Of a stretch of 64,000 nucleotides of DNA, positions 1 through 15,847 are shown piece by piece. The DNA is taken from assembly GCA_014435945.1 (NCBI GenBank), contig GCA_014435945.1_4088.1; one strand, written 5' to 3'. Within the stretch, counting starts at the first letter, position 1, and each line of letters opens with the position of its first letter. The DNA comes from a phage. Position numbers and translations under genes: made by a program. The notes under the pieces are model-generated. The model worked only from the letters and a program-made list of their open reading frames with translations, had not been told where the DNA came from and did no database searches.

Positions 1-207
1 GAAGCAGATATCCAGGCGGTTCAACGGCTTAACGATGAGTTAACGCCGGATGACTTAAGCAAGATTGTAGATCCTCAATTCTACGAAGATATCCACGACA
101 CCGCGTTAAGCGTCGAGGATGTACTAGATAAGCACTTTATTGATACTGATTTGCAGGTTTACGGTCGTAAAAACTTTATCACTATTCACGACATTTACAA
201 TAATTAA
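1..207 (+). CDS. hypothetical protein, 5'-truncated at window edge
   Basis: Frame-1 open from nt 1 to TAA 205-207; no start in window; early promoter follows. Confidence 0.5.
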   Translation, partial: EADIQAVQRLNDELTPDDLSKIVDPQFYEDIHDTALSVEDVLDKHFIDTDLQVYGRKNFITIHDIYNN

Positions 208-210
208 GTA

Positions 211-272
211 TTGACAAAGTATCTTAGTACTGTATAATAGTTTACATCGAGTGAGGGGAAACGGTTCCCCTC
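211..272 (+). promoter_or_regulatory. sigma70-like early promoter (class A) plus 5' leader stem-loop
   Basis: TTGACA 211-216, 16-nt spacer, TGtATAAT with hexamer 233-238; leader hairpin GAGGGGAA-ACGG-TTCCCCTC 253-272. Confidence 0.75.
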
Positions 273-295
273 CTAACAAAGAGAGAGAAATAAAA

Positions 296-478
296 ATGGC
301 TAAATGCACTATCTGTAATAAAGAAATAGTATTAGTTCCAAGTGCCCGTGAACGTGCCGCTCGGTTCGGTGGCAAAGCGTCAGACTATACAAAAATGTTT
401 ACTGCCCATGCAGCTTGCCAGGTAGCAAAACGTTCACAAGAAAGCGTAGAATTAATGCGTAAACTTTCCAAAAAATAA
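296..478 (+). CDS. small hypothetical protein (60 aa), Cys/His-containing
   Basis: ATG 296 after A-rich leader; track ORF 251-478 begins at GTG inside the leader hairpin, so internal ATG preferred. Confidence 0.6.
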   Translation: MAKCTICNKEIVLVPSARERAARFGGKASDYTKMFTAHAACQVAKRSQESVELMRKLSKK

Positions 479-481
479 GTA

Positions 482-542
482 TTGACAAAGTATCTTAGTA
501 CTGTATAATAGTTTACATCAAGTGAGGGGAATGGTTCCCCTC
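482..542 (+). promoter_or_regulatory. sigma70-like early promoter (class A) plus 5' leader stem-loop
   Basis: TTGACA 482-487, TATAAT 504-509 with TG upstream; near-identical copy of 211-238; hairpin 524-542. Confidence 0.75.
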
Positions 543-565
543 CTAACTAAAAGAGAGAAATAAAA

Positions 566-889
566 ATGGCTATGATCCTTGCCCAGAAAGTGGAACTGAA
601 AATTGTAACCTCCTTTGACATTAATGTTAATCGGTGGACTGATTCACACGGCAATACTTACCACTCTTGCTACGTGTCTGCGTTAATTGGCGACCGCTGG
701 GAAGACCTGGGACATGAAACCTTTACATACGGTTACGGTACACAAGGCGAATACACGGGCTTGGAGATCATTAAAGAAACCGTTATAGGTTTCAACCCGA
801 AAGAAAAAGTTATTCACCGCATCGAGGAAGAGATCAACAAAGAAATAACAGTTCGCTACCACGATGTAAAACGTAAGAAAGACATGTAA
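566..889 (+). CDS. hypothetical protein (107 aa)
   Basis: ORF directly downstream of promoter and leader; ATG 566. Confidence 0.7.
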   Translation: MAMILAQKVELKIVTSFDINVNRWTDSHGNTYHSCYVSALIGDRWEDLGHETFTYGYGTQGEYTGLEIIKETVIGFNPKEKVIHRIEEEINKEITVRYHDVKRKKDM

Positions 890-911
890 TAGAATCCATT
901 TAAAGTACTAT

Positions 912-940
912 TTGACATTGCCCAGATAGTACTTTATAAT
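912..940 (+). promoter_or_regulatory. sigma70-like promoter
   Basis: TTGACA 912-917, 17-nt spacer, TATAAT 935-940. Confidence 0.65.
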
Positions 941-984
941 AGACTCTAACTTGTAGTACTAACTTAACTAATAGGATGTATACC

Positions 985-1380
985 ATGATTACTAAATTCT
1001 ACGCTACCCGTGAAGCTGCCCGTATTGTTGCACGCGAGGAAGGAGCAGCATTTAAAGACATGGGCAAAGATGCACCGAAAGGTCAACGCTGGGCCGTACA
1101 GTTCAAAGAAATCTCTGATATTGTGAATTCACCTGAGCCAGTACTAACAGCAGCAGAACTAAAACGAGCGGATATGCTGGCGGCAATACTTGACGCACAA
1201 GATGAATTTATCGCTGATTCTGATATCAAAGTACAGGTAAACCATACCGCTTGGACTCACGCGGATCACCTGGCAAACCTTAAGCGTCCAAGTGAACTGA
1301 TTCGCAACCAGAAAGAGATCCGACATGATCGTAAGGGTAATCGTGTAACAGTATACAGTAAACGCCGCCAGGTTATCTAA
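985..1380 (+). CDS. hypothetical protein (131 aa)
   Basis: ATG 985 with AGGA 973-976 eight nt upstream; track ORF starts at 976 where RBS spacing is poor. Confidence 0.6.
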   Translation: MITKFYATREAARIVAREEGAAFKDMGKDAPKGQRWAVQFKEISDIVNSPEPVLTAAELKRADMLAAILDAQDEFIADSDIKVQVNHTAWTHADHLANLKRPSELIRNQKEIRHDRKGNRVTVYSKRRQVI

Positions 1381-1402
1381 TAACTTGCAGTACTAACAAC
1401 AC

Positions 1403-1428
1403 GGCGGGATCAGTTCCCGCCTTTTTTA
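1403..1428 (+). terminator. rho-independent terminator
   Basis: GGCGGGA-tcagt-TCCCGCC stem-loop followed by TTTTTT. Confidence 0.7.
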
Positions 1429-1441
1429 TAGGACAAACAAA

Positions 1442-1696
1442 ATGATTAAGGTTCAACTATATAAAGATAACATCTTACGGGTACACTATAAAGCACCGAA
1501 GAGAATCATCACAAAGGCCGTACAGCTTGCTAATGAGTTTATTAATGGTAACCTATTACCTAGGAAGTTAAGCAACGGGAAACTGCGTGTAATCGACGTG
1601 GACACTAACAACAGGATAGTAATCGAGAACACAGGAAAGATAAACCTTTATGAGCATCAACAATACAATAAGAAAATAAAACTAATATCACGTTGA
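1442..1696 (+). CDS. hypothetical protein (84 aa)
   Basis: ATG 1442 with AGGA 7 nt upstream. Confidence 0.6.
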   Translation: MIKVQLYKDNILRVHYKAPKRIITKAVQLANEFINGNLLPRKLSNGKLRVIDVDTNNRIVIENTGKINLYEHQQYNKKIKLISR

Positions 1697-1721
1697 CAGT
1701 ACTCAATTGTTTTAGTACTAT
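1693..1721 (+). promoter_or_regulatory. sigma70-like promoter (class C)
   Basis: TTGACA 1693-1698, 17-nt spacer, TACTAT 1716-1721; same module repeated at 1969 and 13931. Confidence 0.6.
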
Positions 1722-1749
1722 GTACACATACCAACACGGGAGAAACAAA

Positions 1750-1968
1750 ATGAAATTATCTAAAATCGAAAAGAAAACTATTGATGAAGCAGTTAAGCAC
1801 GGTTATACCTTTCGTAATGATTCACATTTTACCAATTTTCAACAAGGGTATCGTACTATTAAAAAACTAATTGACAAAGGTTTATTAGTTGAAGTCAATA
1901 ACGGTAACGGTATCGAGTATCAACCAACACAGGACGCATTTTATTTTAAGAAATATAATATTATCTAA
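1750..1968 (+). CDS. small hypothetical protein (72 aa)
   Basis: ATG 1750 (codon 20 of track ORF 1693-1968) after GGGAG; upstream part of track ORF is promoter sequence. Confidence 0.6.
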   Translation: MKLSKIEKKTIDEAVKHGYTFRNDSHFTNFQQGYRTIKKLIDKGLLVEVNNGNGIEYQPTQDAFYFKKYNII

Positions 1969-1997
1969 TTGACAGTACTCAAATGTTTTAGTACTAT
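1969..1997 (+). promoter_or_regulatory. sigma70-like promoter (class C)
   Basis: TTGACA 1969-1974, 17-nt spacer, TACTAT 1992-1997; duplicate of 1693-1721. Confidence 0.6.
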
Positions 1998-2025
1998 ATG
2001 TACATACCAACACGGGGAAAACAAA

Positions 2026-2268
2026 ATGATTACTTTAGAAAAACGTATCAAAGAAACTACATCGCTGGTGGAACTGTTAACAGTACTGAAATGTAAAACA
2101 ACACCATTCAGCACGCCGGACTTTATTAATATGGTTGATGTTAATGGTCGCTATCGCATCACGGTCGAACAAGGAGCGGCGAAAGTATTCAGTACTAAAA
2201 ACACGAAGGAAGTGATCCACGCCGTTAATGTTAAAAAAGTAGTTGCCATTGATAGTAAAGTACTGTAA
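2026..2268 (+). CDS. small hypothetical protein (80 aa)
   Basis: ATG 2026 (codon 20 of track ORF 1969-2268) after GGGGAAAACAAA leader. Confidence 0.6.
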   Translation: MITLEKRIKETTSLVELLTVLKCKTTPFSTPDFINMVDVNGRYRITVEQGAAKVFSTKNTKEVIHAVNVKKVVAIDSKVL

Positions 2269-2271
2269 TAT
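2243..2271 (+). promoter_or_regulatory. candidate sigma70-like promoter
   Basis: TTGCCA 2243-2248, 17-nt spacer, TGTAATAT at 2264-2271. Confidence 0.4.
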
Positions 2272-2299
2272 AGTTTCATTAACTCAAGGAGAACATGCA

Positions 2300-2884
2300 A
2301 TGCGTAATTATACTAAATTCATCCGTACACTGTCAGAAATGGAAACCAACAAAGAGATCCTTTCAGCTTGTCGGTTAGCTGACCTGGAGATCATCGGTGC
2401 TGGTTCTTCCCGTATAGTTTTCGCTTTAAATGATCGGTTAGTGATTAAGGTCGCGAATTGTGATGCGGGTGTAGAACAAAATGAAACTGAATGTATAGTA
2501 TGGAATTTTTTAGACTATGACCGCCCTCAGTTGAAACAGTACTTTGCAAAGGTGCATATGCATTTATGCGATCCTGATAATATGTTTATCGTTATGGATC
2601 GGTTGAGTACTGCAAGCAAAGGCAGTGTGAAGCACGTAAACGCGTGCAATGAATTAAAGTACAATATTAAACGTAATGCAATCGAACGCCAGCACCGCTT
2701 TGCTGATGCACTACAACACGTTGATGATACATTATCAACACTAACGATAAGAGATATCAGAAAACAGAATATCGGCCAGGATCGTAATGGACTTATTAAA
2801 GTACTTGATTACGGTTTAACCAGCAATATCTGGAATCAGTACTATAAAAAGCGTGATGTGGCAGCAAGTAAGGTAACACGATAA
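2300..2884 (+). CDS. minimal Ser/Thr protein kinase-like protein (194 aa)
   Basis: Gly-rich loop IIGAGSSRIVF, Lys in LVIKVA, catalytic-loop-like RDIRKQN, DYG (DFG-like) 19 residues later; AAGGAG 8 nt before ATG 2300. Confidence 0.55.
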   Translation: MRNYTKFIRTLSEMETNKEILSACRLADLEIIGAGSSRIVFALNDRLVIKVANCDAGVEQNETECIVWNFLDYDRPQLKQYFAKVHMHLCDPDNMFIVMDRLSTASKGSVKHVNACNELKYNIKRNAIERQHRFADALQHVDDTLSTLTIRDIRKQNIGQDRNGLIKVLDYGLTSNIWNQYYKKRDVAASKVTR

Positions 2885-2895
2885 AAAAGATTAAA

Positions 2896-2929
2896 AAAGG
2901 GATTGACTCCGGTCAGTCCCTTTGCTATT
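2896..2929 (+). terminator. hairpin terminator, part of a duplicated intergenic module
   Basis: 12-bp stem AAAGGGATTGAC / GTCAGTCCCTTT with 4-nt loop, A-run before and T-rich tail after; conserved box follows at 2958-2980. Confidence 0.6.
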
Positions 2930-3025
2930 ATATATCCATTGAGAGATAACTCACTGACCCATAGGGTGCGGAAGTGTATCTATTATATAAGTATTCAGTA
3001 CTGAAAACTATTTGATAAAAAGTAC

Positions 3026-3086
3026 TTGCAAACTATCTCAATGAGCGTATAATGTTTTATATCGAGAGGGGGAAATGGTTCTCCCT
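3026..3086 (+). promoter_or_regulatory. sigma70-like early promoter (class B) plus leader stem-loop
   Basis: TTGCAA 3026-3031, 16-nt spacer, TATAAT 3048-3053; G-rich leader hairpin 3067-3086. Confidence 0.7.
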
Positions 3087-3108
3087 GGTACTAAAAGGAA
3101 TCAAGACG

Positions 3109-3330
3109 ATGACTACTATGACCTGCGTTCACGCTTCAAATCTTCTGAATGATGCAGCATTTAAAGCAGGTGAAGAATATCAATGCTATCGGGATGAAAA
3201 TAAAAAAGTTTTCGTCGTTGATGCTAACGGTTTCCATATTGAATTACAATCCGGCTTCACTGGTGTTGATGGTAAATCAGTATGGGGCGTTAATGATGAT
3301 AATGGTCTTTATCACTTTATCCGTAATTAA
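3109..3330 (+). CDS. small hypothetical protein (73 aa)
   Basis: ATG 3109 after AAAAGGAA; the MFYIERGKWF extension in the track ORF is translated promoter/leader. Confidence 0.65.
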   Translation: MTTMTCVHASNLLNDAAFKAGEEYQCYRDENKKVFVVDANGFHIELQSGFTGVDGKSVWGVNDDNGLYHFIRN

Positions 3331-3333
3331 GTA

Positions 3334-3392
3334 TTGACAAAGTATCTCAGTACTGTATAATAGTTTACATCAAGGGGAGAATAGTTCTCCCC
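3334..3392 (+). promoter_or_regulatory. sigma70-like early promoter (class A) plus leader stem-loop
   Basis: TTGACA 3334-3339, TGtATAAT with hexamer 3356-3361; hairpin GGGGAGAA-tag-TTCTCCCC 3374-3392. Confidence 0.75.
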
Positions 3393-3413
3393 AATACTAA
3401 AAGGAATAAAATC

Positions 3414-3821
3414 ATGACTACTACTAATCAAGCTCGGTCCATCGCCAACGATAAAAATCATGCTGCAATGGTCGCTGGTTACATTGAAGCTATGCAATTC
3501 AGTACTGTACACAATGAGAACGGCGATTACCTGGAAGATTATGAATTATCAGAGCAAGCCCATCAAGCGGCAGTGATTGCATGTTCACGTTTCCTTGCTG
3601 TACATGGTGAAGATATGGAAACAGTACAAAAACACCATAATCCTGATTATACTTATAGTCATGCAGGTCATGATCTCTTTCTTACTCGCGAAGGTCACGG
3701 CACTGGTTTTTGGGATCGTGATATCGGTCACTATGATGATATATTCACTAAGTACTGCGAAGAAATCAACGTTTGCGATCCCTATGTAGGCGATGATAAT
3801 CTAATCTATATGGGCGAATAA
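3414..3821 (+). CDS. hypothetical protein (135 aa)
   Basis: ATG 3414 after AAAAGGAA RBS. Confidence 0.7.
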   Translation: MTTTNQARSIANDKNHAAMVAGYIEAMQFSTVHNENGDYLEDYELSEQAHQAAVIACSRFLAVHGEDMETVQKHHNPDYTYSHAGHDLFLTREGHGTGFWDRDIGHYDDIFTKYCEEINVCDPYVGDDNLIYMGE

Positions 3822-3827
3822 AAGTAT

Positions 3828-3886
3828 TTGACAAAGTATATTAGTACTGTATAATAGTTTACATCAAGGGGAGAATAGTTCTCCCC
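3828..3886 (+). promoter_or_regulatory. sigma70-like early promoter (class A) plus leader stem-loop
   Basis: TTGACA 3828-3833, TATAAT 3850-3855; hairpin 3868-3886. Confidence 0.75.
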
Positions 3887-3910
3887 ACACCAATAAAAGG
3901 AAACAAAATT

Positions 3911-4183
3911 ATGTCCAGCTACTCCGCTACTATGATCATTAAAGATATGAACGGTAATCCTACTTCTGCTGGTGGATCATTTGGAAACATTAATTTAGAT
4001 GGTCGGTTATCCATGCAATCAGCCATCGATGCAGCGAAAGAAGTTTTTAAGAATGAATGTACTGTTAGTAAGCTGGATTATATGGGATTCGCTATCGAGA
4101 AAACTAATCGTTTTGTGAACTACAAAAATCCACTGATGATTGATACTAACCTGAAAGCTAACGAAGTGGAATACTTATTATGA
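3911..4183 (+). CDS. hypothetical protein (90 aa)
   Basis: ATG 3911 after AAAAGGAA RBS. Confidence 0.7.
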   Translation: MSSYSATMIIKDMNGNPTSAGGSFGNINLDGRLSMQSAIDAAKEVFKNECTVSKLDYMGFAIEKTNRFVNYKNPLMIDTNLKANEVEYLL

Positions 4184-4371
4184 CAGTTGAAGAAGTTAAA
4201 AAAGTACTGGCAGTACTACGCTATCATAATCATTGCAAGGTGAAGAATGATCCTGATTATCTCGATTCATCCCTGGAAGAGGATACACTACAAGCAATAA
4301 GCCATATGCAAAAAATGCTTAAGCGTATGACCGAAAAGAATAGGCCGGACTATATCGGAAATAAAATTTAA
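4180..4371 (+). CDS. small hypothetical protein (63 aa)
   Basis: ATGA start/stop overlap with upstream gene. Confidence 0.55.
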   Translation: MTVEEVKKVLAVLRYHNHCKVKNDPDYLDSSLEEDTLQAISHMQKMLKRMTEKNRPDYIGNKI

Positions 4372-4378
4372 AAAGTAC

Positions 4379-4440
4379 TTGCATTGTAGTTAGATTAACG
4401 TATAATGTTTTATATCGAGAGGGGGAAATGGTTTCCCCTC
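4379..4440 (+). promoter_or_regulatory. sigma70-like early promoter (class B) plus leader stem-loop
   Basis: TTGCAT 4379-4384, 16-nt spacer, TATAAT 4401-4406; bulged G-rich hairpin 4419-4440. Confidence 0.7.
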
Positions 4441-4458
4441 AAGTCCAGGAGATACACA

Positions 4459-4722
4459 ATGAACACTATCGAAATCACTATCAATGCACACGTATACGAC
4501 AACGTAGTACTGCAAACTACTATGACCGCCAATGATACCAGTACTTTGCGGAATACTGTTATTAGTGCTGTATGTGCCGCTATCGGTGATGTCGCCCTGG
4601 AAAATGCAAAACACGTAAACGATGGTTTCACTATGTGCAAACGTGATAACGCAAAACATATCATCGTGGAAGGTTACGGCGGTGTAGAATTTAATGTTTA
4701 TATGAAAAAAGTACTTGCATAA
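4459..4722 (+). CDS. hypothetical protein (87 aa)
   Basis: ATG 4459 after CAGGAG; track ORF 4405 begins inside the leader. Confidence 0.65.
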   Translation: MNTIEITINAHVYDNVVLQTTMTANDTSTLRNTVISAVCAAIGDVALENAKHVNDGFTMCKRDNAKHIIVEGYGGVEFNVYMKKVLA

Positions 4723-4771
4723 TAACTAAAACAAAGTATAATGTTTTGCATAGGGGGAGATATCCTCCCCC
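4715..4771 (+). promoter_or_regulatory. sigma70-like early promoter (class B) plus leader stem-loop
   Basis: TTGCAT 4715-4720, TATAAT 4737-4742; hairpin GGGGGAG-atatc-CTCCCCC 4753-4771. Confidence 0.7.
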
Positions 4772-4789
4772 ACTAAAAGGAGTAATAAA

Positions 4790-5014
4790 ATGGCTAACTT
4801 TGATGAACTGATGCGGGAAGTAGCTAACCTGGCAGAAGAGAAGAAATCATTCGATTCTATCTATAACACCGCTCACCGTGATTCAGTACTGGCATGTAAC
4901 CAGGATCAAAAAGATGAACTAATCGCCACCTATCATGAAGCATGGAAGTACTACCGACAATGGGAGAAAGAAGAAAGTGAGTCTACCATTGACGGCCTCA
5001 ATAATCTAATCTAA
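4790..5014 (+). CDS. small hypothetical protein (74 aa)
   Basis: ATG 4790 after AAAAGGAG RBS. Confidence 0.7.
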   Translation: MANFDELMREVANLAEEKKSFDSIYNTAHRDSVLACNQDQKDELIATYHEAWKYYRQWEKEESESTIDGLNNLI

Positions 5015-5033
5015 AAGTTTTATTTCAGTACTA

Positions 5034-5063
5034 TTGACATAGCTTGATAGTACTGATGTAATA
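5034..5063 (+). promoter_or_regulatory. candidate sigma70-like promoter
   Basis: TTGACA 5034-5039 with imperfect -10 (TGTAAT/TAATAA) 17-19 nt downstream. Confidence 0.4.
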
Positions 5064-5090
5064 ACTTTACTAACTACAAGGGGAAACATA

Positions 5091-5348
5091 ATGGATCAAT
5101 TCACACAATATCGGGTAAATCCTCAAGCTATGGCCTACGTAGAAGACCATAAAACGTTACCAGTACTGCAACCAGTTAAAGGCCATATCTATCGTGCAAT
5201 GTCGTGGTGTACGGCCCAGGATGGCTATAAAACCGTAGCCGTGGGTATGTATTGCGGTAATGGTGAATGGTTTGATCCAAATAATCCGGTAGCCATTGAC
5301 AGTACTGAAAAAATGAAATGGGCCGACTACATCGAAGATATTTCATAA
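5091..5348 (+). CDS. hypothetical protein (85 aa)
   Basis: ATG 5091 after AAGGGGAAA. Confidence 0.65.
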   Translation: MDQFTQYRVNPQAMAYVEDHKTLPVLQPVKGHIYRAMSWCTAQDGYKTVAVGMYCGNGEWFDPNNPVAIDSTEKMKWADYIEDIS

Positions 5349-5355
5349 AAACTAT

Positions 5356-5416
5356 TTGACAGTACTAACCAGTAATGTATAATGTTTTACATAGAGCGGG
5401 GGAATAGTTCTCCCGC
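5356..5416 (+). promoter_or_regulatory. sigma70-like early promoter plus leader stem-loop
   Basis: TTGACA 5356-5361, 16-nt spacer, TATAAT 5378-5383; hairpin GCGGGGGAA-tag-TTCTCCCGC 5396-5416. Confidence 0.7.
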
Positions 5417-5438
5417 CAATAGTTTGGAGTAAAACATT

Positions 5439-5639
5439 ATGTCTATCGCTATCGCCCTGGTTGAAGTACTGAAAGAAGCTAAAGCCAACCTTATCGATGT
5501 ACAGATTAAGGAATTGCAAAACGGCTTAATCGGCTGTACTTGTACCGCTGGTGGAGCGGCAGACTATCGAGAACACGAATCACTCGAATCACTGGTTCGG
5601 TATCTTACCATGATCGTTGATGATTGGAGAATCATCTAA
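5439..5639 (+). CDS. small hypothetical protein (66 aa)
   Basis: ATG 5439 after TGGAG. Confidence 0.65.
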   Translation: MSIAIALVEVLKEAKANLIDVQIKELQNGLIGCTCTAGGAADYREHESLESLVRYLTMIVDDWRII

Positions 5640-5654
5640 CAAAAAAGAATAAAA

Positions 5655-5688
5655 AAAGGGATTGACTCAGGTCAGTCCCTTTGCTATT
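5655..5688 (+). terminator. hairpin terminator, second copy of the duplicated intergenic module
   Basis: Same 12-bp stem as 2896-2923 with loop tcag; conserved box at 5712-5735. Confidence 0.6.
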
Positions 5689-5804
5689 ATATACGCATAG
5701 ACAAAAACTAGCCCACAGGGTGCATAAGTGTATCCAAAATATATAGTTAATAACGGTGAGTAACTATCTGCTGGTGGAGTGAAAACTATTAATAAAAAAA
5801 AGTA

Positions 5805-5833
5805 TTGACAAAGTATATCAGTACTGCAATAAT
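5805..5833 (+). promoter_or_regulatory. sigma70-like early promoter (class A variant)
   Basis: TTGACA 5805-5810, 17-nt spacer, TGcAATAAT at 5825-5833. Confidence 0.6.
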
Positions 5834-5886
5834 GTATCTCGTAGGGCGGCAATGGTGCGACGGCCCACAAAGTTAGGAGATTCAAA

Positions 5887-6219
5887 ATGACTACTTCAAT
5901 CGCTATCGTTAAAGCTTTCATCCGTACTAATGTTTCCTCTGTATTCATCGACGGCCTCGACCGTAACGTAGAATACTCAATCATTATCGCACAAACGGCA
6001 AACGGTTCTCGGTACATCCTGAATGATAGTGAAGCAAATCACTACTACTTCACTAAAGCCACTGGCTTTAAACGCATCGATGCTGATGTAGTATACGCTA
6101 AGATGAATAAGCTGGTAGACAAGATTAACGCGAAAGGTACTATCGATTTACAGTACTGGACCGAAACCGATCCAGAATATGGATCTCACCGCTACCTGAA
6201 TCCAGGTATTAAAATGTAA
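5887..6219 (+). CDS. hypothetical protein (110 aa)
   Basis: ATG 5887 after AGGAG. Confidence 0.7.
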   Translation: MTTSIAIVKAFIRTNVSSVFIDGLDRNVEYSIIIAQTANGSRYILNDSEANHYYFTKATGFKRIDADVVYAKMNKLVDKINAKGTIDLQYWTETDPEYGSHRYLNPGIKM

Positions 6220-6226
6220 AAAGTAC

Positions 6227-6289
6227 TTGCATAGTACTTAGATTCATGTATAATGTTTTACATAGAGAGGGGGAAATGGTTCTCCCTCC
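6227..6289 (+). promoter_or_regulatory. sigma70-like early promoter (class B) plus leader stem-loop
   Basis: TTGCAT 6227-6232, 16-nt spacer, TATAAT 6249-6254; G-rich hairpin about 6267-6289. Confidence 0.7.
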
Positions 6290-6308
6290 TAAATTAAGGA
6301 GTTTTATC

Positions 6309-6710
6309 ATGACCTTCTCAATCACTTCCTTCGCTGACGTTTTAGTACTGGCTCGGACTTTTGGTAAAGATGCACTGGAGTACGCTGTAAGTAATGGCAC
6401 TATCCAACCGGAACAGTGCCGCATCATTGGAAACTGCAAACGTTGGGCGGTATCCAATACTATTGCACTGGAAAACTTCAACGATGGCAACAATGAATAT
6501 TCTGTTGATGTAGTATTCGAAGCCGTAGACCTGGGCGGTATCTATAACACTAACCTGAATGATGTGCGTATCGTTCGCACTGGCTTCGGTGCTTATGATG
6601 TATCTATCCGTGAAGCTATGGACAAGGGATACATTAGCAAGGACTTACTTGCTCACATCATGCAGCTATGGACGGAACGTAACGAAGCACGTACTATCTT
6701 AGGGCTGTAA
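6309..6710 (+). CDS. hypothetical protein (133 aa)
   Basis: ATG 6309 after AAGGAG; track ORF 6246 begins inside promoter/leader. Confidence 0.65.
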   Translation: MTFSITSFADVLVLARTFGKDALEYAVSNGTIQPEQCRIIGNCKRWAVSNTIALENFNDGNNEYSVDVVFEAVDLGGIYNTNLNDVRIVRTGFGAYDVSIREAMDKGYISKDLLAHIMQLWTERNEARTILGL

Positions 6711-6734
6711 GCAATACACATCACCAAACATCAT

Positions 6735-6754
6735 AGGCCGCTCTCTAGCGGCCT
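6735..6754 (+). other. stem-loop without U-tract
   Basis: GGCCGC-tctcta-GCGGCC palindrome after stop of 6309-6710. Confidence 0.35.
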
Positions 6755-6778
6755 TAACTATATCAGGAGTACATACAC

Positions 6779-6988
6779 ATGATCTATACAGTATACAACG
6801 TTCTAGGCACTATTGCAGGCGTACATGATAACGTCGATAGTGCTATGCGTACAGTACTGCAACAGGTTCCACTAAAGCCTAAGACCATTAAGCAGATGAC
6901 AGCACGACTAACCAGGGCGACGGCTGGCGTGGAAGTATGGCAGGACTATGGGGATACACAGATAATCGTAAGCGTAACGAAGGATTAA
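6779..6988 (+). CDS. small hypothetical protein (69 aa)
   Basis: ATG 6779 after CAGGAG. Confidence 0.65.
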   Translation: MIYTVYNVLGTIAGVHDNVDSAMRTVLQQVPLKPKTIKQMTARLTRATAGVEVWQDYGDTQIIVSVTKD

Positions 6989-7134
6989 TGCGTAAAGGGA
7001 TCTAGTACTGATTCAGAAAAAAGTCAAGGCGTTTTTAAAATTATGCGTTAAAAAAATGCATAGGTAATCCCTTGACTTTTTTGAAATAAAAGGGATTGGA
7101 CTATGGCAAAATGCGTAGGGGGCTAAAGGGCGGG
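6987..7134 (+). repeat. iteron-like direct repeats in a 250-bp intergenic region
   Basis: ATGCGTA(A/G)(A/G)GGG at about 6988 and 7109 with a variant near 7044; TAAAGGG core recurs near 6994, 7088, 7124, 7153. Confidence 0.4.
7017..7082 (+). other. 13-bp perfect inverted repeat (long hairpin, terminator-like)
   Basis: AAAAAAGTCAAGG 7017-7029 pairs with CCTTGACTTTTTT 7070-7082 across a 40-nt loop. Confidence 0.45.
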
Positions 7135-7179
7135 TAACCTTAGCGACTTCGATAAAGGGGTATTACTTATAAAATGTTA

Positions 7180-7207
7180 TTGACTTTTTATATGAATCGT
7201 ATATTAT
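7180..7207 (+). promoter_or_regulatory. candidate sigma70-like promoter for the F1 array
   Basis: TTGACT 7180-7185, 16-nt spacer, TATTAT 7202-7207. Confidence 0.45.
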
Positions 7208-7237
7208 TGGATTGATATTATTTTTAATGGAGTCCCT

Positions 7238-7435
7238 ATGCGTATTTTAACTCAAGAAGAGCACAACCACACACTCATATCCAACATGGCATATATCCTA
7301 CATATGTCACATATCCGTGGTATTGCATATAAGCGTGAATTGGTTATGAAACTTTTCATAGGAACTAACTATCAAGAAAAGTATATCGAACTATACTTAC
7401 AAGAATTACGAAGGGACATAAAAGGTAGACTATGA
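7238..7435 (+). CDS. F1 small paralog protein (65 aa)
   Basis: F1 member; C-terminal motif FIGTNYQEKYIELYL; first gene of tandem array. Confidence 0.65.
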   Translation: MRILTQEEHNHTLISNMAYILHMSHIRGIAYKRELVMKLFIGTNYQEKYIELYLQELRRDIKGRL

Positions 7436-7632
7436 AAATGCGTATTTTAAATAAAGAAGATTATCAAGAACTGTTACGTAAAAACATGGTAAAGATTTAT
7501 AACACAGACACAAACTTAGAACGAATTGAGTTATACCTTTTGATTACATTGGGAACAAGCTATCAGGGAAGATGGGTGATTCAATATATGGATGCATTGA
7601 AAAATGAAATATTATCCACGAGGAAACAATGA
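7432..7632 (+). CDS. F1 small paralog protein
   Basis: F1 motif LGTSYQGRWV; ATGA overlap with upstream stop. Confidence 0.65.
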   Translation: MKMRILNKEDYQELLRKNMVKIYNTDTNLERIELYLLITLGTSYQGRWVIQYMDALKNEILSTRKQ

Positions 7633-7838
7633 AAACTATAACACGAACCCAATCATACGGTCTTATCTTGAGATACATGGACTTAATGTTGGATATCAGA
7701 AAAGACCTTCCTAAAACTGCAATTGAAGTTGCAAGAGCAGAGATCCGCATGTTGGCTGTACTGAACACAAACCATCAGGAAGAGTATGTTGACGATTGGA
7801 TTCGATTTTTAATAGAAGATATTAAGAGGAAACTATGA
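7629..7838 (+). CDS. F1 small paralog protein
   Basis: F1 motif LNTNHQEEYV; ATGA overlap. Confidence 0.65.
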   Translation: MKTITRTQSYGLILRYMDLMLDIRKDLPKTAIEVARAEIRMLAVLNTNHQEEYVDDWIRFLIEDIKRKL

Positions 7839-8047
7839 TTTTTTTAACACCAGAAGAATATAAGATACGTTTTGTTTCTGTCCAGAATAAAATCTTAATT
7901 ATATACAATTCAAATGCAGACCTTAACTTATCAAGGGTATTAGAAAAAGATTTACTTATGGGTGCATTTTTGGATACAGACTTTCAGGTGTATTATGTAG
8001 GGGAATACTTAATTGCACTCCAGAATTACATTAAGAGTAAACTATGA
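7835..8047 (+). CDS. F1 small paralog protein
   Basis: F1 motif FLDTDFQVYYV; close paralog of 8044-8256. Confidence 0.65.
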   Translation: MIFLTPEEYKIRFVSVQNKILIIYNSNADLNLSRVLEKDLLMGAFLDTDFQVYYVGEYLIALQNYIKSKL

Positions 8048-8256
8048 ATAGCATTAACTCAAATCTATATACCGAACGCGTCGCTGCCAGACAACTTGAA
8101 ATTCTCATAGTATATGAAGAGACTGATGATTTAAACTTAGCATTAGTATTGGAAAATGATATACTATTGGGTGCATTCCTCGGCACAGACTATCAGGAGC
8201 ACTTCTTGAATGAGTATATAATTGCACTCCAGAAATACATTAAGAGCAAACTATGA
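8044..8256 (+). CDS. F1 small paralog protein
   Basis: F1 motif FLGTDYQEHFL; ATGA overlap. Confidence 0.65.
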   Translation: MNSINSNLYTERVAARQLEILIVYEETDDLNLALVLENDILLGAFLGTDYQEHFLNEYIIALQKYIKSKL

Positions 8257-8471
8257 AACATTTAAGTAATTACGAGAAGAATAAAATTATCGTTGCTGCA
8301 ATAAACAAATATTTTACACTTCCTCACACAGAAGGTTTATGTGTAAGGGAACACAGGATAAACACCACCGATATACGCATGATGGCTGTACTGGGGACGA
8401 ACTTTCAGGAAGAGTATGTTGTTGCACACATAGTTGCCCTCACTGATTTAATAAGGGACAAATGCAAATGA
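8253..8471 (+). CDS. F1 small paralog protein
   Basis: F1 motif VLGTNFQEEYV; N-term MKHLSNYEK. Confidence 0.65.
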   Translation: MKHLSNYEKNKIIVAAINKYFTLPHTEGLCVREHRINTTDIRMMAVLGTNFQEEYVVAHIVALTDLIRDKCK

Positions 8472-8686
8472 AAGACATAAACACTCAAGAATATCTTAAA
8501 CGATTAGAACAAGGGAAGAACTTTAGACTTCAAGTTTACGATGATGAATCACTAACATCCAATGAAAAGTATGTTATACTAACAGACTCAACATTAATAC
8601 CATTTGTAGGAACAAACTATCAGGAGGTTATGGTAGACAACCACATCACGGCCTTAAAATGTCATGTCAGGGATTTAGGTAAATGA
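8468..8686 (+). CDS. F1 small paralog protein
   Basis: F1 motif FVGTNYQEVMV; start set at ATGA overlap (track 8462). Confidence 0.6.
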   Translation: MKDINTQEYLKRLEQGKNFRLQVYDDESLTSNEKYVILTDSTLIPFVGTNYQEVMVDNHITALKCHVRDLGK

Positions 8687-8940
8687 AACACTTAACTGAT
8701 GATGAATTTGAAACTATAATTCGTAAACTAACCCCCATCACAAGGATAGTCTACGGTGACCCCAGCCTTACATGGAACCAAATGCGAGCTAAAGTTAATG
8801 AGCTATGGTTGCTGTACTTTATGGGGACTCAATATCAAGATAAGTTTTGCACAGAATATATCGAACAATTAACGAATGTTATACAGGATAAACTAGATGA
8901 TTATTTGCTCACAAAACATGAAGACTTTATCAGGAGTTGA
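8683..8940 (+). CDS. F1 small paralog protein
   Basis: F1 motif FMGTQYQDKF; N-term MKHLTDDEF. Confidence 0.65.
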   Translation: MKHLTDDEFETIIRKLTPITRIVYGDPSLTWNQMRAKVNELWLLYFMGTQYQDKFCTEYIEQLTNVIQDKLDDYLLTKHEDFIRS

Positions 8941-9169
8941 GTATCAAACTGCCCTATTCTCTTTAATCCATACCCTTAGAAAAAACAATGCCTTACATGG
9001 TGCACCTGAAGTGGATGTTATCAACGGTGAACTTTATCTTATGAAATTCATTGGAACAAACTATCAAGATCTGTTCATTCAACGATACTTATCAGCATTA
9101 AGAAACCAAATCCAATATAAAACCATCAAGGCCAAAAAAGAATGGAATAAACAATGCGACACAGACTAA
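8918..9169 (+). CDS. F1 small paralog protein
   Basis: F1 motif FIGTNYQDLFI; start chosen at MKTLSGVEY by family N-terminal consensus (track 8897). Confidence 0.55.
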   Translation: MKTLSGVEYQTALFSLIHTLRKNNALHGAPEVDVINGELYLMKFIGTNYQDLFIQRYLSALRNQIQYKTIKAKKEWNKQCDTD

Positions 9170-9405
9170 ATCACAAAATGTATTGTAAACTATTACAGAC
9201 ACTGGCACAGAAACACTATGACACGGTATCTGAAATATTACCCTATGATATCATGCGTTTACTTCACTGTGAGGCCGAGATGCTTGTACTGATGACAGGC
9301 ACAGATAAAAAAGCAATTGCCAAATCAATAGATATGTTCATCGAAGCACAATGTCAACACATTAGAACCGAGATATGGAGGCGAGAGAATGATAACCCTA
9401 AATGA
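9154..9405 (+). CDS. F1 small paralog protein (divergent)
   Basis: Degenerate F1 motif LMTGTDKKAIA; same size and position in array. Confidence 0.55.
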   Translation: MRHRLNHKMYCKLLQTLAQKHYDTVSEILPYDIMRLLHCEAEMLVLMTGTDKKAIAKSIDMFIEAQCQHIRTEIWRRENDNPK

Positions 9406-9604
9406 GTATCAGTATCATTGGAGGTTACAAGCTATAAGAAGGAAAGTTGTTAGTATTTCTTTAGACAAGTCTATTGCACAAGAGGACAAATGTGTTATAA
9501 TAGCTGAAATGAAGTTGGGTGCTTTCGTAGGAACAAACTATCAAAACATCTACACTGACGTATTGTTAAGTGCCTTACGTAACAAGGTGATATCAAAAGA
9601 ATGA
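9389..9604 (+). CDS. F1 small paralog protein
   Basis: F1 motif FVGTNYQNIY; N-term MITLNEYQY. Confidence 0.65.
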   Translation: MITLNEYQYHWRLQAIRRKVVSISLDKSIAQEDKCVIIAEMKLGAFVGTNYQNIYTDVLLSALRNKVISKE

Positions 9605-9819
9605 GAAAATTACAAGGCTTTGAATACATCAGACTCCTGAAAACATGTGCCAACAGAAGAGTAAAGATTCAATCTGATAAGAGCATCCCTGCCAACCTAA
9701 AACATGCAATGATAGCTGAACTCTATGCAGGGGCACTCATAGGGACAAACTATCAACAAATGTATATAGACATGTGGGTTGATGCATTAGTCAAGGAGAT
9801 CCAAAGTAAATGCAAATGA
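9601..9819 (+). CDS. F1 small paralog protein
   Basis: F1 motif LIGTNYQQMYI; ATGA overlap. Confidence 0.65.
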   Translation: MRKLQGFEYIRLLKTCANRRVKIQSDKSIPANLKHAMIAELYAGALIGTNYQQMYIDMWVDALVKEIQSKCK

Positions 9820-10028
9820 TTAATTTAAGTAAAGATGAATATTATGATCGTCTTGCAAAAACTTATCCAGCACGTAACGCCGTTTATAATAGTAACATTA
9901 TTGAACGCTCAAAGAAGTTGATTGTAGTGAATGAGATTAAGATGCTTTCAGTCTTAGGAACAAACTATCAAGAGAATGCTGTACTGTTGTTAATTGATGC
10001 CCTCCAGAGAGAGATACAAAGTAAATGA
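9816..10028 (+). CDS. F1 small paralog protein
   Basis: F1 motif VLGTNYQENAV; start at ATGA overlap (track 9810). Confidence 0.6.
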   Translation: MINLSKDEYYDRLAKTYPARNAVYNSNIIERSKKLIVVNEIKMLSVLGTNYQENAVLLLIDALQREIQSK

Positions 10029-10261
10029 TTAATTTATCTTTCCATGAATATCAAAAACGTTTAAATGCATCAAGGGATATAAGGATTCAAATCTTCAATA
10101 ACAAAAAATTGAAACCTGACACCAGAAGAATCAAAATAATAGAAGCAGAGTTATGCAACTTCCTGGGGACGAACCATCAGGAAGGTAAGATAAAAAACTA
10201 TCTTAGAGAACTAATGAATTGTATCGAAAATAAATGCGATGCTTTGGAGAATAAAAAATGA
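10025..10261 (+). CDS. F1 small paralog protein
   Basis: F1 motif FLGTNHQEGKI; N-term MINLSFHEY. Confidence 0.65.
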   Translation: MINLSFHEYQKRLNASRDIRIQIFNNKKLKPDTRRIKIIEAELCNFLGTNHQEGKIKNYLRELMNCIENKCDALENKK

Positions 10262-10515
10262 TCAATTTAAGTAAAGATGAATATACCGAGCGTATGACAA
10301 AAATCTCACCTAAACGTAATGCAATCTATTACAGCCAAGAAATTCCACACAGTAAGAAGATGATTATGTATCGTGAGTTAAAGATGGGTATGTTCTTAGG
10401 AACAAACTATCAAGAACCAGAAGTAAATCGCTTAATAAATGAATTACTCATGGAAATCAGAGGTAAGCTGTACTTTCATCAAATGACCCAGCCACTGAGG
10501 TGTACTAAGAAATGA
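10258..10515 (+). CDS. F1 small paralog protein
   Basis: F1 motif FLGTNYQEPEV; N-term MINLSKDEY. Confidence 0.65.
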   Translation: MINLSKDEYTERMTKISPKRNAIYYSQEIPHSKKMIMYRELKMGMFLGTNYQEPEVNRLINELLMEIRGKLYFHQMTQPLRCTKK

Positions 10516-10727
10516 TCAACATCACATTGCAAGAAAGATTCATCCGAATCAACTATGCAATTACCAAATTAGATGCTACTATAGACAACCAAAGTTTACC
10601 GTTCAAAACAAGAATGATATTAGAGTGCGAAGCCAAGTTAGGTGTACTGTTAGGGACGCAACACCAACAACGATATGTGGAAATCTGGATTGATCTTTTA
10701 ACCCAAAATGCACATGAGAGAATGTAA
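10512..10727 (+). CDS. F1 small paralog protein
   Basis: F1 motif LLGTQHQQRYV; ATGA overlap. Confidence 0.65.
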   Translation: MINITLQERFIRINYAITKLDATIDNQSLPFKTRMILECEAKLGVLLGTQHQQRYVEIWIDLLTQNAHERM

Positions 10728-10739
10728 ATGCAAAAGGAA

Positions 10740-10958
10740 ATGATATACTTAACACATGATGAATTTCAAGAGAAGATGTTAAAAGCCAATAACATTACTC
10801 TTAAGTTCGTTCCAAATCAATCAATATATGAAATGTCTGCGAATGTATTGTTTCAGAAGCTACCATACGTTCTTGGAACTGATAAACAAGAATTTATGGT
10901 TCAAAATATGATTGAGCATCTTGCAATGAGTATTATGGAAAAAGTAAATGCAAAATGA
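10740..10958 (+). CDS. F1 small paralog protein
   Basis: F1 motif VLGTDKQEFMV; start MIYLTHDEF by consensus (track 10728). Confidence 0.55.
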   Translation: MIYLTHDEFQEKMLKANNITLKFVPNQSIYEMSANVLFQKLPYVLGTDKQEFMVQNMIEHLAMSIMEKVNAK

Positions 10959-10959
10959 A

Positions 10960-11190
10960 ATGAAATACTTAACATATAATGAATACGTCGAGAGATTAGT
11001 TAGTGCCAAGAGATATGCCAATCAACTTCCTAATGATCCAAACCAAACCCCAGAGGAAAAGAATGCGGAAGCTCTATTCCAAGCACTACCATACCTTCTT
11101 GGAACTGATAGGCAGGAGTATCACGTTGAACGTATAATTAAATCTCTTAAAATCACTATTAAGGAAAAAGTAAATGCAAAAGCAAAATGA
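10960..11190 (+). CDS. F1 small paralog protein
   Basis: F1 motif LLGTDRQEYHV; start MKYLTYNEY (track 10948). Confidence 0.55.
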   Translation: MKYLTYNEYVERLVSAKRYANQLPNDPNQTPEEKNAEALFQALPYLLGTDRQEYHVERIIKSLKITIKEKVNAKAK

Positions 11191-11191
11191 A

Positions 11192-11437
11192 ATGAAATAC
11201 TTAACAGACGATGAGTTAAAAGAACGATTAATTAAATCCAGAAAACTTACAAATCAACTTCCAATCGACACAAACAAGTCACATGCCGAAAGGAGTGCAG
11301 AAGTTTTATACATTCAACTCCTGTACTTTCTTGGAACTGACAGACAAGAGTATTACATTGAAAGTATGCTTCGATATCTTAAATTCTCTATAAAGGAAAA
11401 GGTACATGCTCAAGAATTTAAAAATCCTAACAGTTAA
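11192..11437 (+). CDS. F1 small paralog protein
   Basis: F1 motif FLGTDRQEYYI; start MKYLTDDEL (track 11174). Confidence 0.55.
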   Translation: MKYLTDDELKERLIKSRKLTNQLPIDTNKSHAERSAEVLYIQLLYFLGTDRQEYYIESMLRYLKFSIKEKVHAQEFKNPNS

Positions 11438-11648
11438 TGAATATCATAAGATTGTAATGAAAACTAATAGTGAAATTTCTAAAAAATCAAACCCAAAGTA
11501 CATACTGGAACACACATTCGAAGAACGTCAATTAGCTCTAGTTGAAGCAAAACTTCTTGCACTCCTAGGAACAAACTATCAGGAAGAATACATCAGAAAA
11601 CTAATATACCTTTTAACTAAACACATCAGGAAAAGAAAAAAAGCATGA
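11406..11648 (+). CDS. F1 small paralog protein
   Basis: F1 motif LLGTNYQEEYI; 32-nt overlap with upstream gene, start uncertain. Confidence 0.55.
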   Translation: MLKNLKILTVNEYHKIVMKTNSEISKKSNPKYILEHTFEERQLALVEAKLLALLGTNYQEEYIRKLIYLLTKHIRKRKKA

Positions 11649-11875
11649 AACACTTGACAGATGATGAACATGGGCTTATAGTAATGGATGTAATCAACAT
11701 CGAATACAAAAAGTTGATACGCTACCGTTGTTATGAAGATAAGCAACTCGTTCTAGCAGAACAGAAGTTGTTTCGACTCTTAAACACAAACTTCCAAGCA
11801 CAATACGAAGAATCGTATTTGTACCTACTGTCGAGGAAAGCAAAAAGAGATTATGAAAATTTTAAACCACAGTGA
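11645..11875 (+). CDS. F1 small paralog protein
   Basis: F1 motif LLNTNFQAQYE; N-term MKHLTDDEH; ATGA overlap. Confidence 0.65.
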   Translation: MKHLTDDEHGLIVMDVINIEYKKLIRYRCYEDKQLVLAEQKLFRLLNTNFQAQYEESYLYLLSRKAKRDYENFKPQ

Positions 11876-12068
11876 ACAAACAGAATTGTTAATCTTTAAT
11901 ACAAGTAAATTCTTAAACATAACATTGTCTGATATAGATGAGGATGAAAAAGAGTTACTTAGAGCAGATTTAAGAGTTCTTTTATATGTTGGAACTAACT
12001 TCCAAGAGCAATTCGTTGAGGACTACATCGATGAACTTAAAGAATCTGTACTGAGAACATGCAAATGA
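11853..12068 (+). CDS. F1 small paralog protein
   Basis: F1 motif YVGTNFQEQFV; N-term MKILNHSEQ. Confidence 0.6.
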   Translation: MKILNHSEQTELLIFNTSKFLNITLSDIDEDEKELLRADLRVLLYVGTNFQEQFVEDYIDELKESVLRTCK

Positions 12069-12292
12069 AAATCCTTTCACCAAGTGAATACCACGAACTA
12101 TTAAGTAGTTTAATTCTAAAATTGTATATAGCAAAGACCACAGATTTACCTGATGAAGAAAAAAATATTCTAATGAGTGAAATCTATGTTAATTCTACCC
12201 TAGGGACTAACTATCAAGAATGTAATATTAATGATTACATCAATGAACTAAAAAGGTTTATCCAATGCAAATGCGAATCATTACCGAAGTAG
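12065..12292 (+). CDS. F1 small paralog protein
   Basis: F1 motif TLGTNYQECNI; start at ATGA overlap; near-duplicate of next gene. Confidence 0.6.
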   Translation: MKILSPSEYHELLSSLILKLYIAKTTDLPDEEKNILMSEIYVNSTLGTNYQECNINDYINELKRFIQCKCESLPK

Positions 12293-12507
12293 AATACCTA
12301 ACAATCATAAATGGACTGTTTTCGAAGTTATTTGCCATTAACACATCAAAACTTCCAGATACTGATAAAATTATTAAGTTAAATGAAATCTACGTTCAAG
12401 CTACTCTAGGAACAAACTATCAAGAAGCCAATGTGTATAATTACATTAATACACTCAAAAGGGTAATACAATTAAAATGCACAGACAGCACACACACAAA
12501 CCCCTAG
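12271..12507 (+). CDS. F1 small paralog protein
   Basis: F1 motif TLGTNYQEANV; start MRIITEVEY by analogy to 12065 (track 12265). Confidence 0.55.
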   Translation: MRIITEVEYLTIINGLFSKLFAINTSKLPDTDKIIKLNEIYVQATLGTNYQEANVYNYINTLKRVIQLKCTDSTHTNP

Positions 12508-12707
12508 GAACAGCAGAATACATTGAACTAATGGCTGCAAACTTCTCATCCTTTAAGAAACTGATGCAAGAATCAAATAATGATTTAGAATATCATATCA
12601 AAAGTTCAGATTTAAGATTACTACTCACTCTAGGAACAGACAGTCAGTACAAATTCGTACAGGAGCATATTAGAGCACTTTTAAATGGCATCAGGGATAA
12701 ACTATGA
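12477..12707 (+). CDS. F1 small paralog protein
   Basis: F1 motif TLGTDSQYKFV. Confidence 0.6.
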   Translation: MHRQHTHKPLGTAEYIELMAANFSSFKKLMQESNNDLEYHIKSSDLRLLLTLGTDSQYKFVQEHIRALLNGIRDKL

Positions 12708-12919
12708 AGGAAATATCAAATCAAGAGTACTTGGCACTGTTCAGAAAAAATAGTCAAGAATTTCTGAATATTGATACAAGGACTGATATAAGTGAACTTC
12801 AGAAAAATCTTTTGCGTTCAGAGATGATAGTACTGACACTCTTAGGAACACAGCATCAAGAGAGAACTGTTAATTCACACATAGGTATTCTTATACAGAT
12901 TGTACAGGAAAAGATATGA
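12704..12919 (+). CDS. F1 small paralog protein
   Basis: F1 motif LLGTQHQERTV; N-term MKEISNQEY; ATGA overlap. Confidence 0.65.
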   Translation: MKEISNQEYLALFRKNSQEFLNIDTRTDISELQKNLLRSEMIVLTLLGTQHQERTVNSHIGILIQIVQEKI

Positions 12920-14558: not shown

Positions 14559-14567
14559 GAGAAGAAT

Positions 14568-14879: not shown

Positions 14880-14907
14880 GAATATACCTAAAGGAGATGC
14901 AATATAA

Positions 14908-15836: not shown

Positions 15837-15847
15837 GGAATACCAAT

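Follow-up and report, generated by a model that had tools for sequence, protein, structure and literature searches.

In a 64,000-nt stretch of phage DNA (hereafter the window), two intergenic regions carry the same compact module, in which a terminator-like hairpin overlaps a promoter and is followed by a conserved box. On the basis of comparative sequence analysis we propose, with middling confidence, that each copy is a pre-early operon junction in the direct terminal repeat (DTR), combining a terminator, a promoter embedded in it, and a functional box RNA that has a conserved partner. The functional product would be the RNA and not the DNA, and it would belong to a multi-copy small-RNA family. 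Rak2-like jumbo phages, a group under development for therapy, have hundreds of genes without annotation and a terminal repeat of ~20 kb. Should the RNAs prove to be made, they would give direct access to pre-early regulation or to the takeover of the host in these phages, and would also be a clean natural case of one hairpin serving both as terminator and as promoter. The unit is short, present in many copies and readily testable.

By sequence identity, the window is assigned to Asteriusvirus, a Rak2-like jumbo coliphage. Positions 2200-6300 share 94-98.5% identity with Asteriusvirus jumbo coliphages (EC.P1, vB_Ec-M-J, G17, 121Q, PBECO4 and others), and nucleotides 14,393-22,886 of vB_Ec-M-J are colinear with window positions 1-8494 at 97% identity. 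The DTR of vB_Ec-M-J is annotated at 1-21,525 (~21 kb), and given this colinearity the DTR ends near window position 7,130, with both copies of the module in its final 4.3 kb. The hairpin of copy A starts 12 nt after the stop codon (2882-2884) of a plus-strand ORF at 2243-2884, and that of copy B starts 16 nt after the stop codon (5637-5639) of a plus-strand ORF at 5439-5639. The two intergenic regions are alike over ~250 nt (80% identity), a longer stretch than originally noted, and this similarity takes in the next strong early promoter together with its 5'-UTR hairpin. After box A, this promoter is found 41 nt downstream at 3026-3053 (plus strand, TTGCAA-16-TATAAT) and is followed by the conserved 5'-UTR hairpin and an ATG at 3109; after box B, it is found at 5805-5833 (plus strand, TTGACA-17-AATAAT), with an ATG at 5887.

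Two further features of this neighborhood were recorded. The ORF upstream of copy A gives a sub-threshold match to the protein kinase Pfam family PF00069 (E = 0.009), the sole Pfam match among the flanking ORFs; its counterparts are annotated as serine/threonine kinase in several relatives, and in K64-1 a unit lies directly upstream of the annotated kinase gene, rather than after the ORF as copy A does. In addition, the window contains a family of near-consensus early promoters, each with an A-rich upstream element and followed by a conserved 5'-UTR hairpin (GAGAGGGGGAAATGGTTCTCCCTC or GGGGAGAATAGTTCTCCCC) and then a ribosome-binding site. Members of this family are located at 194-269, 465-540, 3004-3087, 3317-3392, 3811-3886, 4357-4440, 4697-4753, 5334-5417 and 6205-6288, so that every window copy falls inside the DTR part.

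The hairpin of copy A (2896-2923, plus strand) has a 12-bp stem and a 4-nt loop, AAAGGGATTGAC-N4-GTCAGTCCCTTT, and recurs with one loop difference in copy B (5655-5682, plus strand). That the hairpin occurs twice was the starting observation of the original prediction, and these two positions indeed prove to be its sole matches: no third copy is present in the 64-kb window at up to 3 mismatches, and in shuffled controls none of 100 sequences gave a hairpin match at 2 mismatches. As RNA, the hairpins of copies A and B fold with energies of -19.5 and -18.9 kcal/mol, respectively (z about -6.1 each). A terminator scan of the window lists both of them, with GC-rich stems that directly follow the coding regions, and ARNold terminators are annotated at the two hairpins in phage G17, where nothing more is marked, and also in GAP32. 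In the plus-strand tail, UUUGCUAUUAU, the last three stem positions are U and the U-run that follows is interrupted. The copy A hairpin is described here as an intrinsic-terminator-like element of the upstream operon, and in the proposed junction this GC-rich structure past the stop codon would end the transcript of that operon.

The same DNA presents the hexamers, the 17-bp spacer and the TG one base before the -10 that define a sigma-70 extended -10 promoter, in both copies. In copy A (2903-2931, plus strand), the -35 element TTGACT (2903-2908) is placed within the 5' arm and loop of the hairpin, and a 17-nt spacer that includes TG at 2923-2924 leads to the -10 element TATTAT at 2926-2931. 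In copy B (5662-5690, plus strand), TTGACT lies at 5662-5667, TG at 5682-5683 and TATTAT at 5685-5690. The earlier claim of TTGACT inside the hairpin and TATTAT 17 nt downstream thus holds for both copies, with the TG as a further element. Because the -35 sits in the hairpin arm and the U-tract merges into the TG and the -10, the same ~45 bp could both end and start transcripts. Host RNA polymerase would start at about A2938 in copy A, 7 nt past the -10 on the plus strand and at the A of a conserved CAU, and, judging from the same spacing and the same CAU, at about A5697 on the plus strand in copy B. This CAT column, ~7 nt downstream of the -10, is conserved in both alignments inspected (A2 and A3).

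The module is widespread among related phages. Searched with a 98-nt query reaching from the hairpin to the box, 70 phage records show 3-10 places in each genome, and those that contain both DTR copies have 10 places rather than 5. Across Asteriusvirus genomes the 98-nt module is 99-100% identical, whereas the surrounding 4.1 kb is only 94-96% identical. Other genera retain 73-81% identity along 93-98% of the query, and the carriers include Klebsiella phage K64-1, Cronobacter phage GAP32, Serratia phage BF, Erwinia pEa_SNUABM phages, Salmonella phages Munch and 7t3, Yersinia phage fHe-Yen9-03 and Pectobacterium phage CBB. For comparison, phages such as Munch and fHe-Yen9-03 share only ~24-29% identity with Asteriusvirus over whole genomes (PMC13070987). 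An identity that exceeds both that of the flanks and that of the whole genomes suggests that the module is under selection.

With extra loci from pattern scans of IMG/VR and metagenomes, ~140 related units were gathered from Escherichia, Klebsiella, Cronobacter, Serratia/Erwinia/Yersinia and Pectobacterium jumbo phages and from metagenomes. Exact-pattern matches fall in one ~20-kb stretch of each ~350-kb contig, so the family is DTR-specific in every genome examined. The original prediction, which stood to fall if the full genome held no additional conserved copies, is borne out on this point: a covariance model identifies 11 units in the DTR of the close relative vB_Ec-M-J. In the 57 kb of the window that lie past the DTR end, the model identifies none. 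On these comparisons, the unit is the most conserved non-coding feature of the DTR, across at least five genera.

The promoter is the more constant part of the upstream half. Among 85 non-redundant units, 76 score at least 10/12 against TTGACA-17-TATAAT, and the -10 ends 20-30 nt upstream of the box. An antisense promoter of at least 10/12 downstream of the box was found in none of the 85 (mean score 6.5). A terminator-like hairpin surrounds the -35 in 41 of 80 units, and the other 39 have none. Where the hairpin exists, its outer stem covaries (GGGG/CCCC, GUAC/GUAC, GUGG/CCAU, GGGA/UCCC), with TTGAC fixed in the 5' arm. Since promoter and box are always present and the hairpin only in half of the units, promoter and box form the core of the unit; the hairpin is an optional housing, used where a unit directly follows a same-strand gene. 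The original prediction of a terminator with an embedded promoter firing a box transcript is largely supported, by the sense-strand promoters, the lack of antisense ones and the covarying 5' hairpin described below, with the correction that the terminator hairpin is not the core of the element.

The non-coding RNA expected from these promoters would have, within its first ~50 nt, a short 5' stem-loop whose loop is A-rich (copy B has a reduced version), followed by the box of ~30 nt. In copy A, the box occupies 2955-2985 on the plus strand (22-nt part, 2959-2980; invariant core, 2958-2969) and reads UGA-CCCAUAGGGUGC-GGAAG-UGUAUCUAUUA. In copy B, its 22-nt part lies at 5713-5734 on the plus strand and its core at 5712-5723, and the box reads UAG-CCCACAGGGUGC-AUAAG-UGUAUCC. 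The distance from the hairpin end, anticipated as about 30 nt, measures 36 nt in copy A and 31 nt in copy B. No further box is present in the 64-kb window beyond 2959-2980 and 5713-5734, and neither sensitive BLAST nor the covariance model finds a third unit in it; the model scores 60.9 bits for copy A (2936-2985) and 36.5 bits for copy B. Across the family the box has the consensus UAR-CCCAYAGGGUGC-N5-UGUAUCUAU, the 3' part reading UGUAUCUAUW among the 85 units. In its position matrix C0, C1, G6-G8, U9 and G10 are near-invariant, and the information fades past about +31. The box is conserved as had been claimed, but the length first given to it, 22-23 nt, was too short, and it is bipartite.

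Three small hairpins can be drawn in this RNA. The first, H1, is 5'-proximal and lies four nucleotides from the box; in copy A it spans 2940-2953 on the plus strand (UGAG-AGAUAA-CUCA), with an A-rich loop. Throughout the family H1 has 3-5 bp, with at least 25 different stems and loops such as GCGAAA, AGAUAA, AGAACAA and GAGAAA. A short form, in which a 2-3-bp mini-stem around an A-rich loop is left, occurs in 14 of 59 non-redundant units. Copy A has the long form and copy B the short one: in the 5' domain of the copy B transcript (5695-5739, plus strand), the A-rich segment CAUAGACAAAAACUAG replaces a stable H1. In a model-based alignment of 89 distinct units, the covariation of H1 is 0.304 versus 0.136 after shuffling (none of 500 shuffles reached the observed score), and sliding the partners gives no more than 0.086; the pairing is somewhat inflated because the covariance-model alignments were fitted to H1. 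All four H1 pairs vary on both sides in these units, many distinct H1 stems are also visible in the raw sequences, and a metagenomic set outside model building gives 0.282 versus 0.129 shuffled (0 of 500). Pairing that is kept through compensatory changes argues for an element that acts at the RNA level.

The other two hairpins involve the box itself. Its GGG(UG) would have two alternative partners, CCC on the upstream side, giving H2, and YRUYY on the downstream side, giving H3. In copy A, H2 pairs 2957-2960 with 2964-2967 (plus strand, RCCC/GGGU) and its alternative H3 pairs 2964-2969 with 2976-2981 (plus strand, GGGUGC/GYRUYY). Both use the same GGG and are thus mutually exclusive; both are weak and near-isoenergetic (-3.4 versus -2.9 kcal/mol for H2 and H3), and of the minimum-energy folds 35 contain H3 and 32 contain H2. 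H2 is closed by G-U in 42 units and by A-U in another 40. H3 is paired in 90% versus 32-66% with partners slid, its five varying positions show transitions only, each keeping G-U, G-C, U-A or U-G, and its loop is exactly the variable pentanucleotide of the box. In each of H2 and H3 one strand is invariant, so that two-sided covariation is absent; mutual information over all column pairs of the box reveals no Watson-Crick covariation beyond relatedness, and RNAalifold on a MAFFT alignment recovers H2 alone.

What follows the box differs from unit to unit. A same-strand strong early promoter lies downstream in at least 17 of the 85 units, both window copies among them, and a convergent partner within 110 nt in 25, most of which sit in extended non-coding stretches on the left side of the DTR. 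A terminator is reached first in 10, with predicted RNAs of 94-102 nt; 32 show neither feature under strict criteria, and one lies too near a locus end to be classified. The terminated units are antisense to the local coding strand and use the bidirectional terminator of a neighboring gene. The window copies and most co-directional units have no terminator, and the next strong promoter is 27-140 nt downstream of them. A trans-acting small-RNA gene of the Hfq type is recognized by its own promoter and a Rho-independent terminator some 50-300 nt apart, a combination that 10 related units have and the window copies do not. No terminator lies between the box and the next promoter in either window copy, so a discrete small RNA is not assured there, and the box would form the 5' end of a read-through transcript or of a processing product. 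Transcripts of copy A would extend into the early promoter at 3026-3053. Over the family, units are used in either orientation relative to the coding strand, as would be expected of independent small-RNA genes.

These contexts bear on the idea that the unit is a cis-acting 5' leader, for example a nut/put site or an attenuator, which modifies polymerase or decides whether it halts at H3 or continues, thereby controlling read-through over the many DTR terminators into the next operon. Such a role seems unlikely to us. Both window units face the next operon without a terminator of their own, H2 and H3 exclude each other at nearly equal energies, 5-7 U directly follow H3 in some units (e.g. locus L003, position 1259, and locus L005, position 17348), and the DTR is rich in terminators. 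The H1 loops resemble the purine-rich loops of boxB, and as in the lambda nut sites and rrn antiterminator leaders, a promoter-proximal hairpin with a purine-rich loop stands beside a linear box in a terminator-rich early region. Unlike in lambda nut, however, the hairpin precedes the box, there are ~10 copies per genome, and many of them are antisense or convergent with no operon to antiterminate. The operon-head position that a nut-like site requires is true of the two window copies but untrue of the convergent and antisense units, which have nothing to regulate, and ten units meet a terminator at once, past which there is no gene. Moreover, nothing similar to boxA (consensus CGCUCUUA) is found in the position matrix of the box, the downstream operons each own a much stronger promoter, and in the window copies H3 has neither the strength nor the U-rich tail of a standard terminator. 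A unit that works either way round between a terminator and the next promoter is hard to fit with a leader of the downstream operon.

A site that acts as DNA, namely an operator or roadblock for a phage or host DNA-binding protein past some pre-early promoters, is a quite improbable account. In its favor, the conservation is one of primary sequence, bipartite with a fixed 5-bp variable spacer, and includes the short dyad CCC-N3-GGG; the two boxes of a convergent pair build long inverted repeats and would make inverted-repeat double sites; and sequences like the Fur box and the LexA box, as well as Chi, adjoin units in related phages. A DNA-binding protein that tolerates transitions could also yield the box pattern, which counts against the RNA reading. 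However, the box never leaves the transcribed side and keeps a single orientation towards a conserved promoter, and its distance from that promoter shifts by up to 10 bp between the short and the long form. A DNA site would also leave the covarying H1 between start and box without a role, and the alternations of G-U with A-U and of G-U with G-C fit pairing in the sense RNA only.

It is very unlikely that the box is instead a minigene, with AGGGUG as Shine-Dalgarno sequence and, 5 nt on, NUG-UAU-CUA-stop, which would sequester a rare tRNA or load ribosomes. The bar minigenes of lambda offer a parallel for such a tiny ORF, and ATG, GTG or TTG stands at the required position in 47 of 89 distinct units, with exactly M-Y-L-stop in 14; the window copies would encode 13 (A) and 11 (B) residues. 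Yet the other 42 units have no start codon there, the ORFs run from 1 to over 38 codons, and the variation is not codon-like, with third positions conserved and first and second positions varying. Finally, a minus-strand small RNA, with the box read as its complement and the hairpin ending the opposite-strand transcript at the better U-run CCCUUUUUUAAUCUUUUUU (U6-7, longer than the plus-strand U-tract), is almost certainly to be rejected because of the promoter asymmetry and the wobble pairs, since no antisense promoter accompanies the sense ones, half of the units lack a hairpin that could end the transcript, and the G-U pairs of H1, H2 and H3 turn into A-C mismatches, although a TATAAT lies on the minus strand at 2987-2982 in copy A and the minus-strand folds have z scores of -1.7 and -2.3.

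Returning to the favored reading of the unit as the source of a functional box RNA, ~10 such genes in each DTR mean that the RNAs could be made first, and in quantity, upon DNA entry. The RNA would act through its box by binding a conserved partner. Binding of a partner to the two-state motif is favored by the primary sequence being invariant from genus to genus, by the bipartite pattern, in which the spacer resembles a loop, and by the large number of gene copies, and we lean towards a protein or a structured RNA rather than a simple antisense target. In the window, the 12-nt core has no further match at up to 1 mismatch on either strand; BLAST gave no similarity among 5,426 E. coli genomes, and an exact search of both strands of 185,579 species genomes yields no copy of the 26-nt box pattern; these searches are blind to short seed matches. 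A bolder and rather less probable reading is that the box RNAs constitute a new class of pre-early effector, in which the two-state 30-nt motif titrates or re-programs a conserved enterobacterial factor, such as an RNA-binding protein, a nuclease or a defense component, as an RNA-based system of host takeover or anti-defense. Around ten near-identical small-RNA genes would then enter the cell with the first DNA, and the promoter set in a terminator would serve specifically to fire the RNAs at each operon boundary.

Three component ideas of the unit are already known individually. What is new is their combination, in which a terminator-promoter overlap, a 5' stabilizer-like hairpin and a multi-copy small-RNA block are joined and confined to the terminal repeat of jumbo phages. 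Overlaps of terminator and promoter are a general arrangement in compact phage and bacterial genomes, where a stem-loop and U-tract end one unit and the same DNA gives the hexamers; here, in contrast, the overlap is a conserved and repeated design, with TTGAC fixed and the U-tract merging into TG-n-TATTAT. The Qrr1-5 RNAs of Vibrio are similar in being several separately promoted genes for RNAs of ~100 nt that share a conserved 5'-near stretch, some with Rho-independent terminators. The present units differ from them in being phage-encoded, in ~10 copies confined to the terminal repeat and many without a terminator, and in that the phage block is a two-state hairpin motif with no obviously single-stranded seed.

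Neither Rfam nor the searchable literature describes the element. Rfam 15 gives no hit in the window at gathering score, and permissive thresholds return only chance-level matches around the module (E above 2) and E values of at least 0.05 in the K64-1 unit region; a tRNA/tmRNA scan of the window finds nothing. In the literature on Asteriusvirus, Rak2-like phages, phAPEC6, promoters and RNA-seq the element is undescribed, and the papers on CBB, GAP32-type promoters, Sharanji and fEgEco12 report RpoD-like promoters, terminators and DTRs, the element not among them. In genome annotations the hairpin is sometimes marked as 'terminator' and the rest of the element is unmarked. Several resemblances to known sequences were also considered: RfaH ops (GCGG in copy A only), the type I-F CRISPR repeat (copy A linker only), the CsrA site (GGG here, not GGA), the Tus Ter site (two units only), and RNase P RNA and the 16S 530 region (same-sense matches of 8-13 nt, consistent with chance); a presumed likeness to ToxI was set aside. 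RNA-seq of PA5oct, a distantly related jumbo phage, has revealed abundant non-coding RNAs from the DTR that are high from early infection (PMC7318152). They are 236-451 nt long and defined by RNA-seq. A pair of these RNAs is the nearest experimental precedent; homology with a PA5oct DTR non-coding RNA was looked for by eye, and none is visible.

Other sequence features of the units in related phages were noted in passing. Many units of K64-1, RaK2 and GAP32 have a direct repeat, TTTACAAATCTTTACAAA, immediately before the -35 (L004 at 10230, 11246, 11469, 18164 and 19577; L005 at 6542 and 23532); it is not found in the window, from which the motif AAATCTTTACAAA, present ahead of K64-1 and GAP32 units, is absent as well. 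In K64-1 and several uncultured relatives, convergent pairs contain a central palindrome (L004 ~11340-11400, L006 ~8080-8110, L008 ~1280-1300, L028 ~6090-6110) that nearly matches the Fur-box consensus (GAGAATGATAATCATTTAC); the window has no match to it below 2 mismatches. Some units are followed by a sequence that resembles the LexA (SOS) box, for example TACTGTACATAAAAACAGTA in CBB and GAP32 (loci: L011 (-)5438, L005 (-)12884, L025 +691 and +2621, L028 (-)10020).

The E. coli Chi sequence, GCTGGTGG, occurs 6 times in the window versus 0.32 expected, at 2064-2071, 3968-3975, 5547-5554, 5770-5777 and 54345 on the plus strand and at 45694 on the minus strand. Four of these sites, all co-oriented, thus fall in the 7-kb DTR part, and one of the four is located 31 nt past box B. 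Related DTRs hold 10-11 Chi sites, mostly co-oriented, and several unit promoters have Chi or its complement in the spacer. This enrichment suggests that the linear genome ends may be protected from RecBCD.

The palindrome AGTACT is found 203 times in the window versus 17 ± 4 expected from dinucleotide shuffles, in promoters (AAAAAGTACTTGCA; CAGTACTGG ahead of CATAAT), in intergenic DNA and in gene interiors. It is missing from two deserts, 7010-12725 and 14434-23383, the first of which starts almost exactly at the DTR boundary (~7130). The window also contains arrays of small paralogous genes at 7336-12423, 10718-11442, 23135-26008 and 29438-29832; one example is a 40-nt block ending in GGAACAAACTATCAA, repeated in 10 copies at a spacing of ~200-1200 bp, and 10718-11442 consists of tandem units of 220-232 bp.
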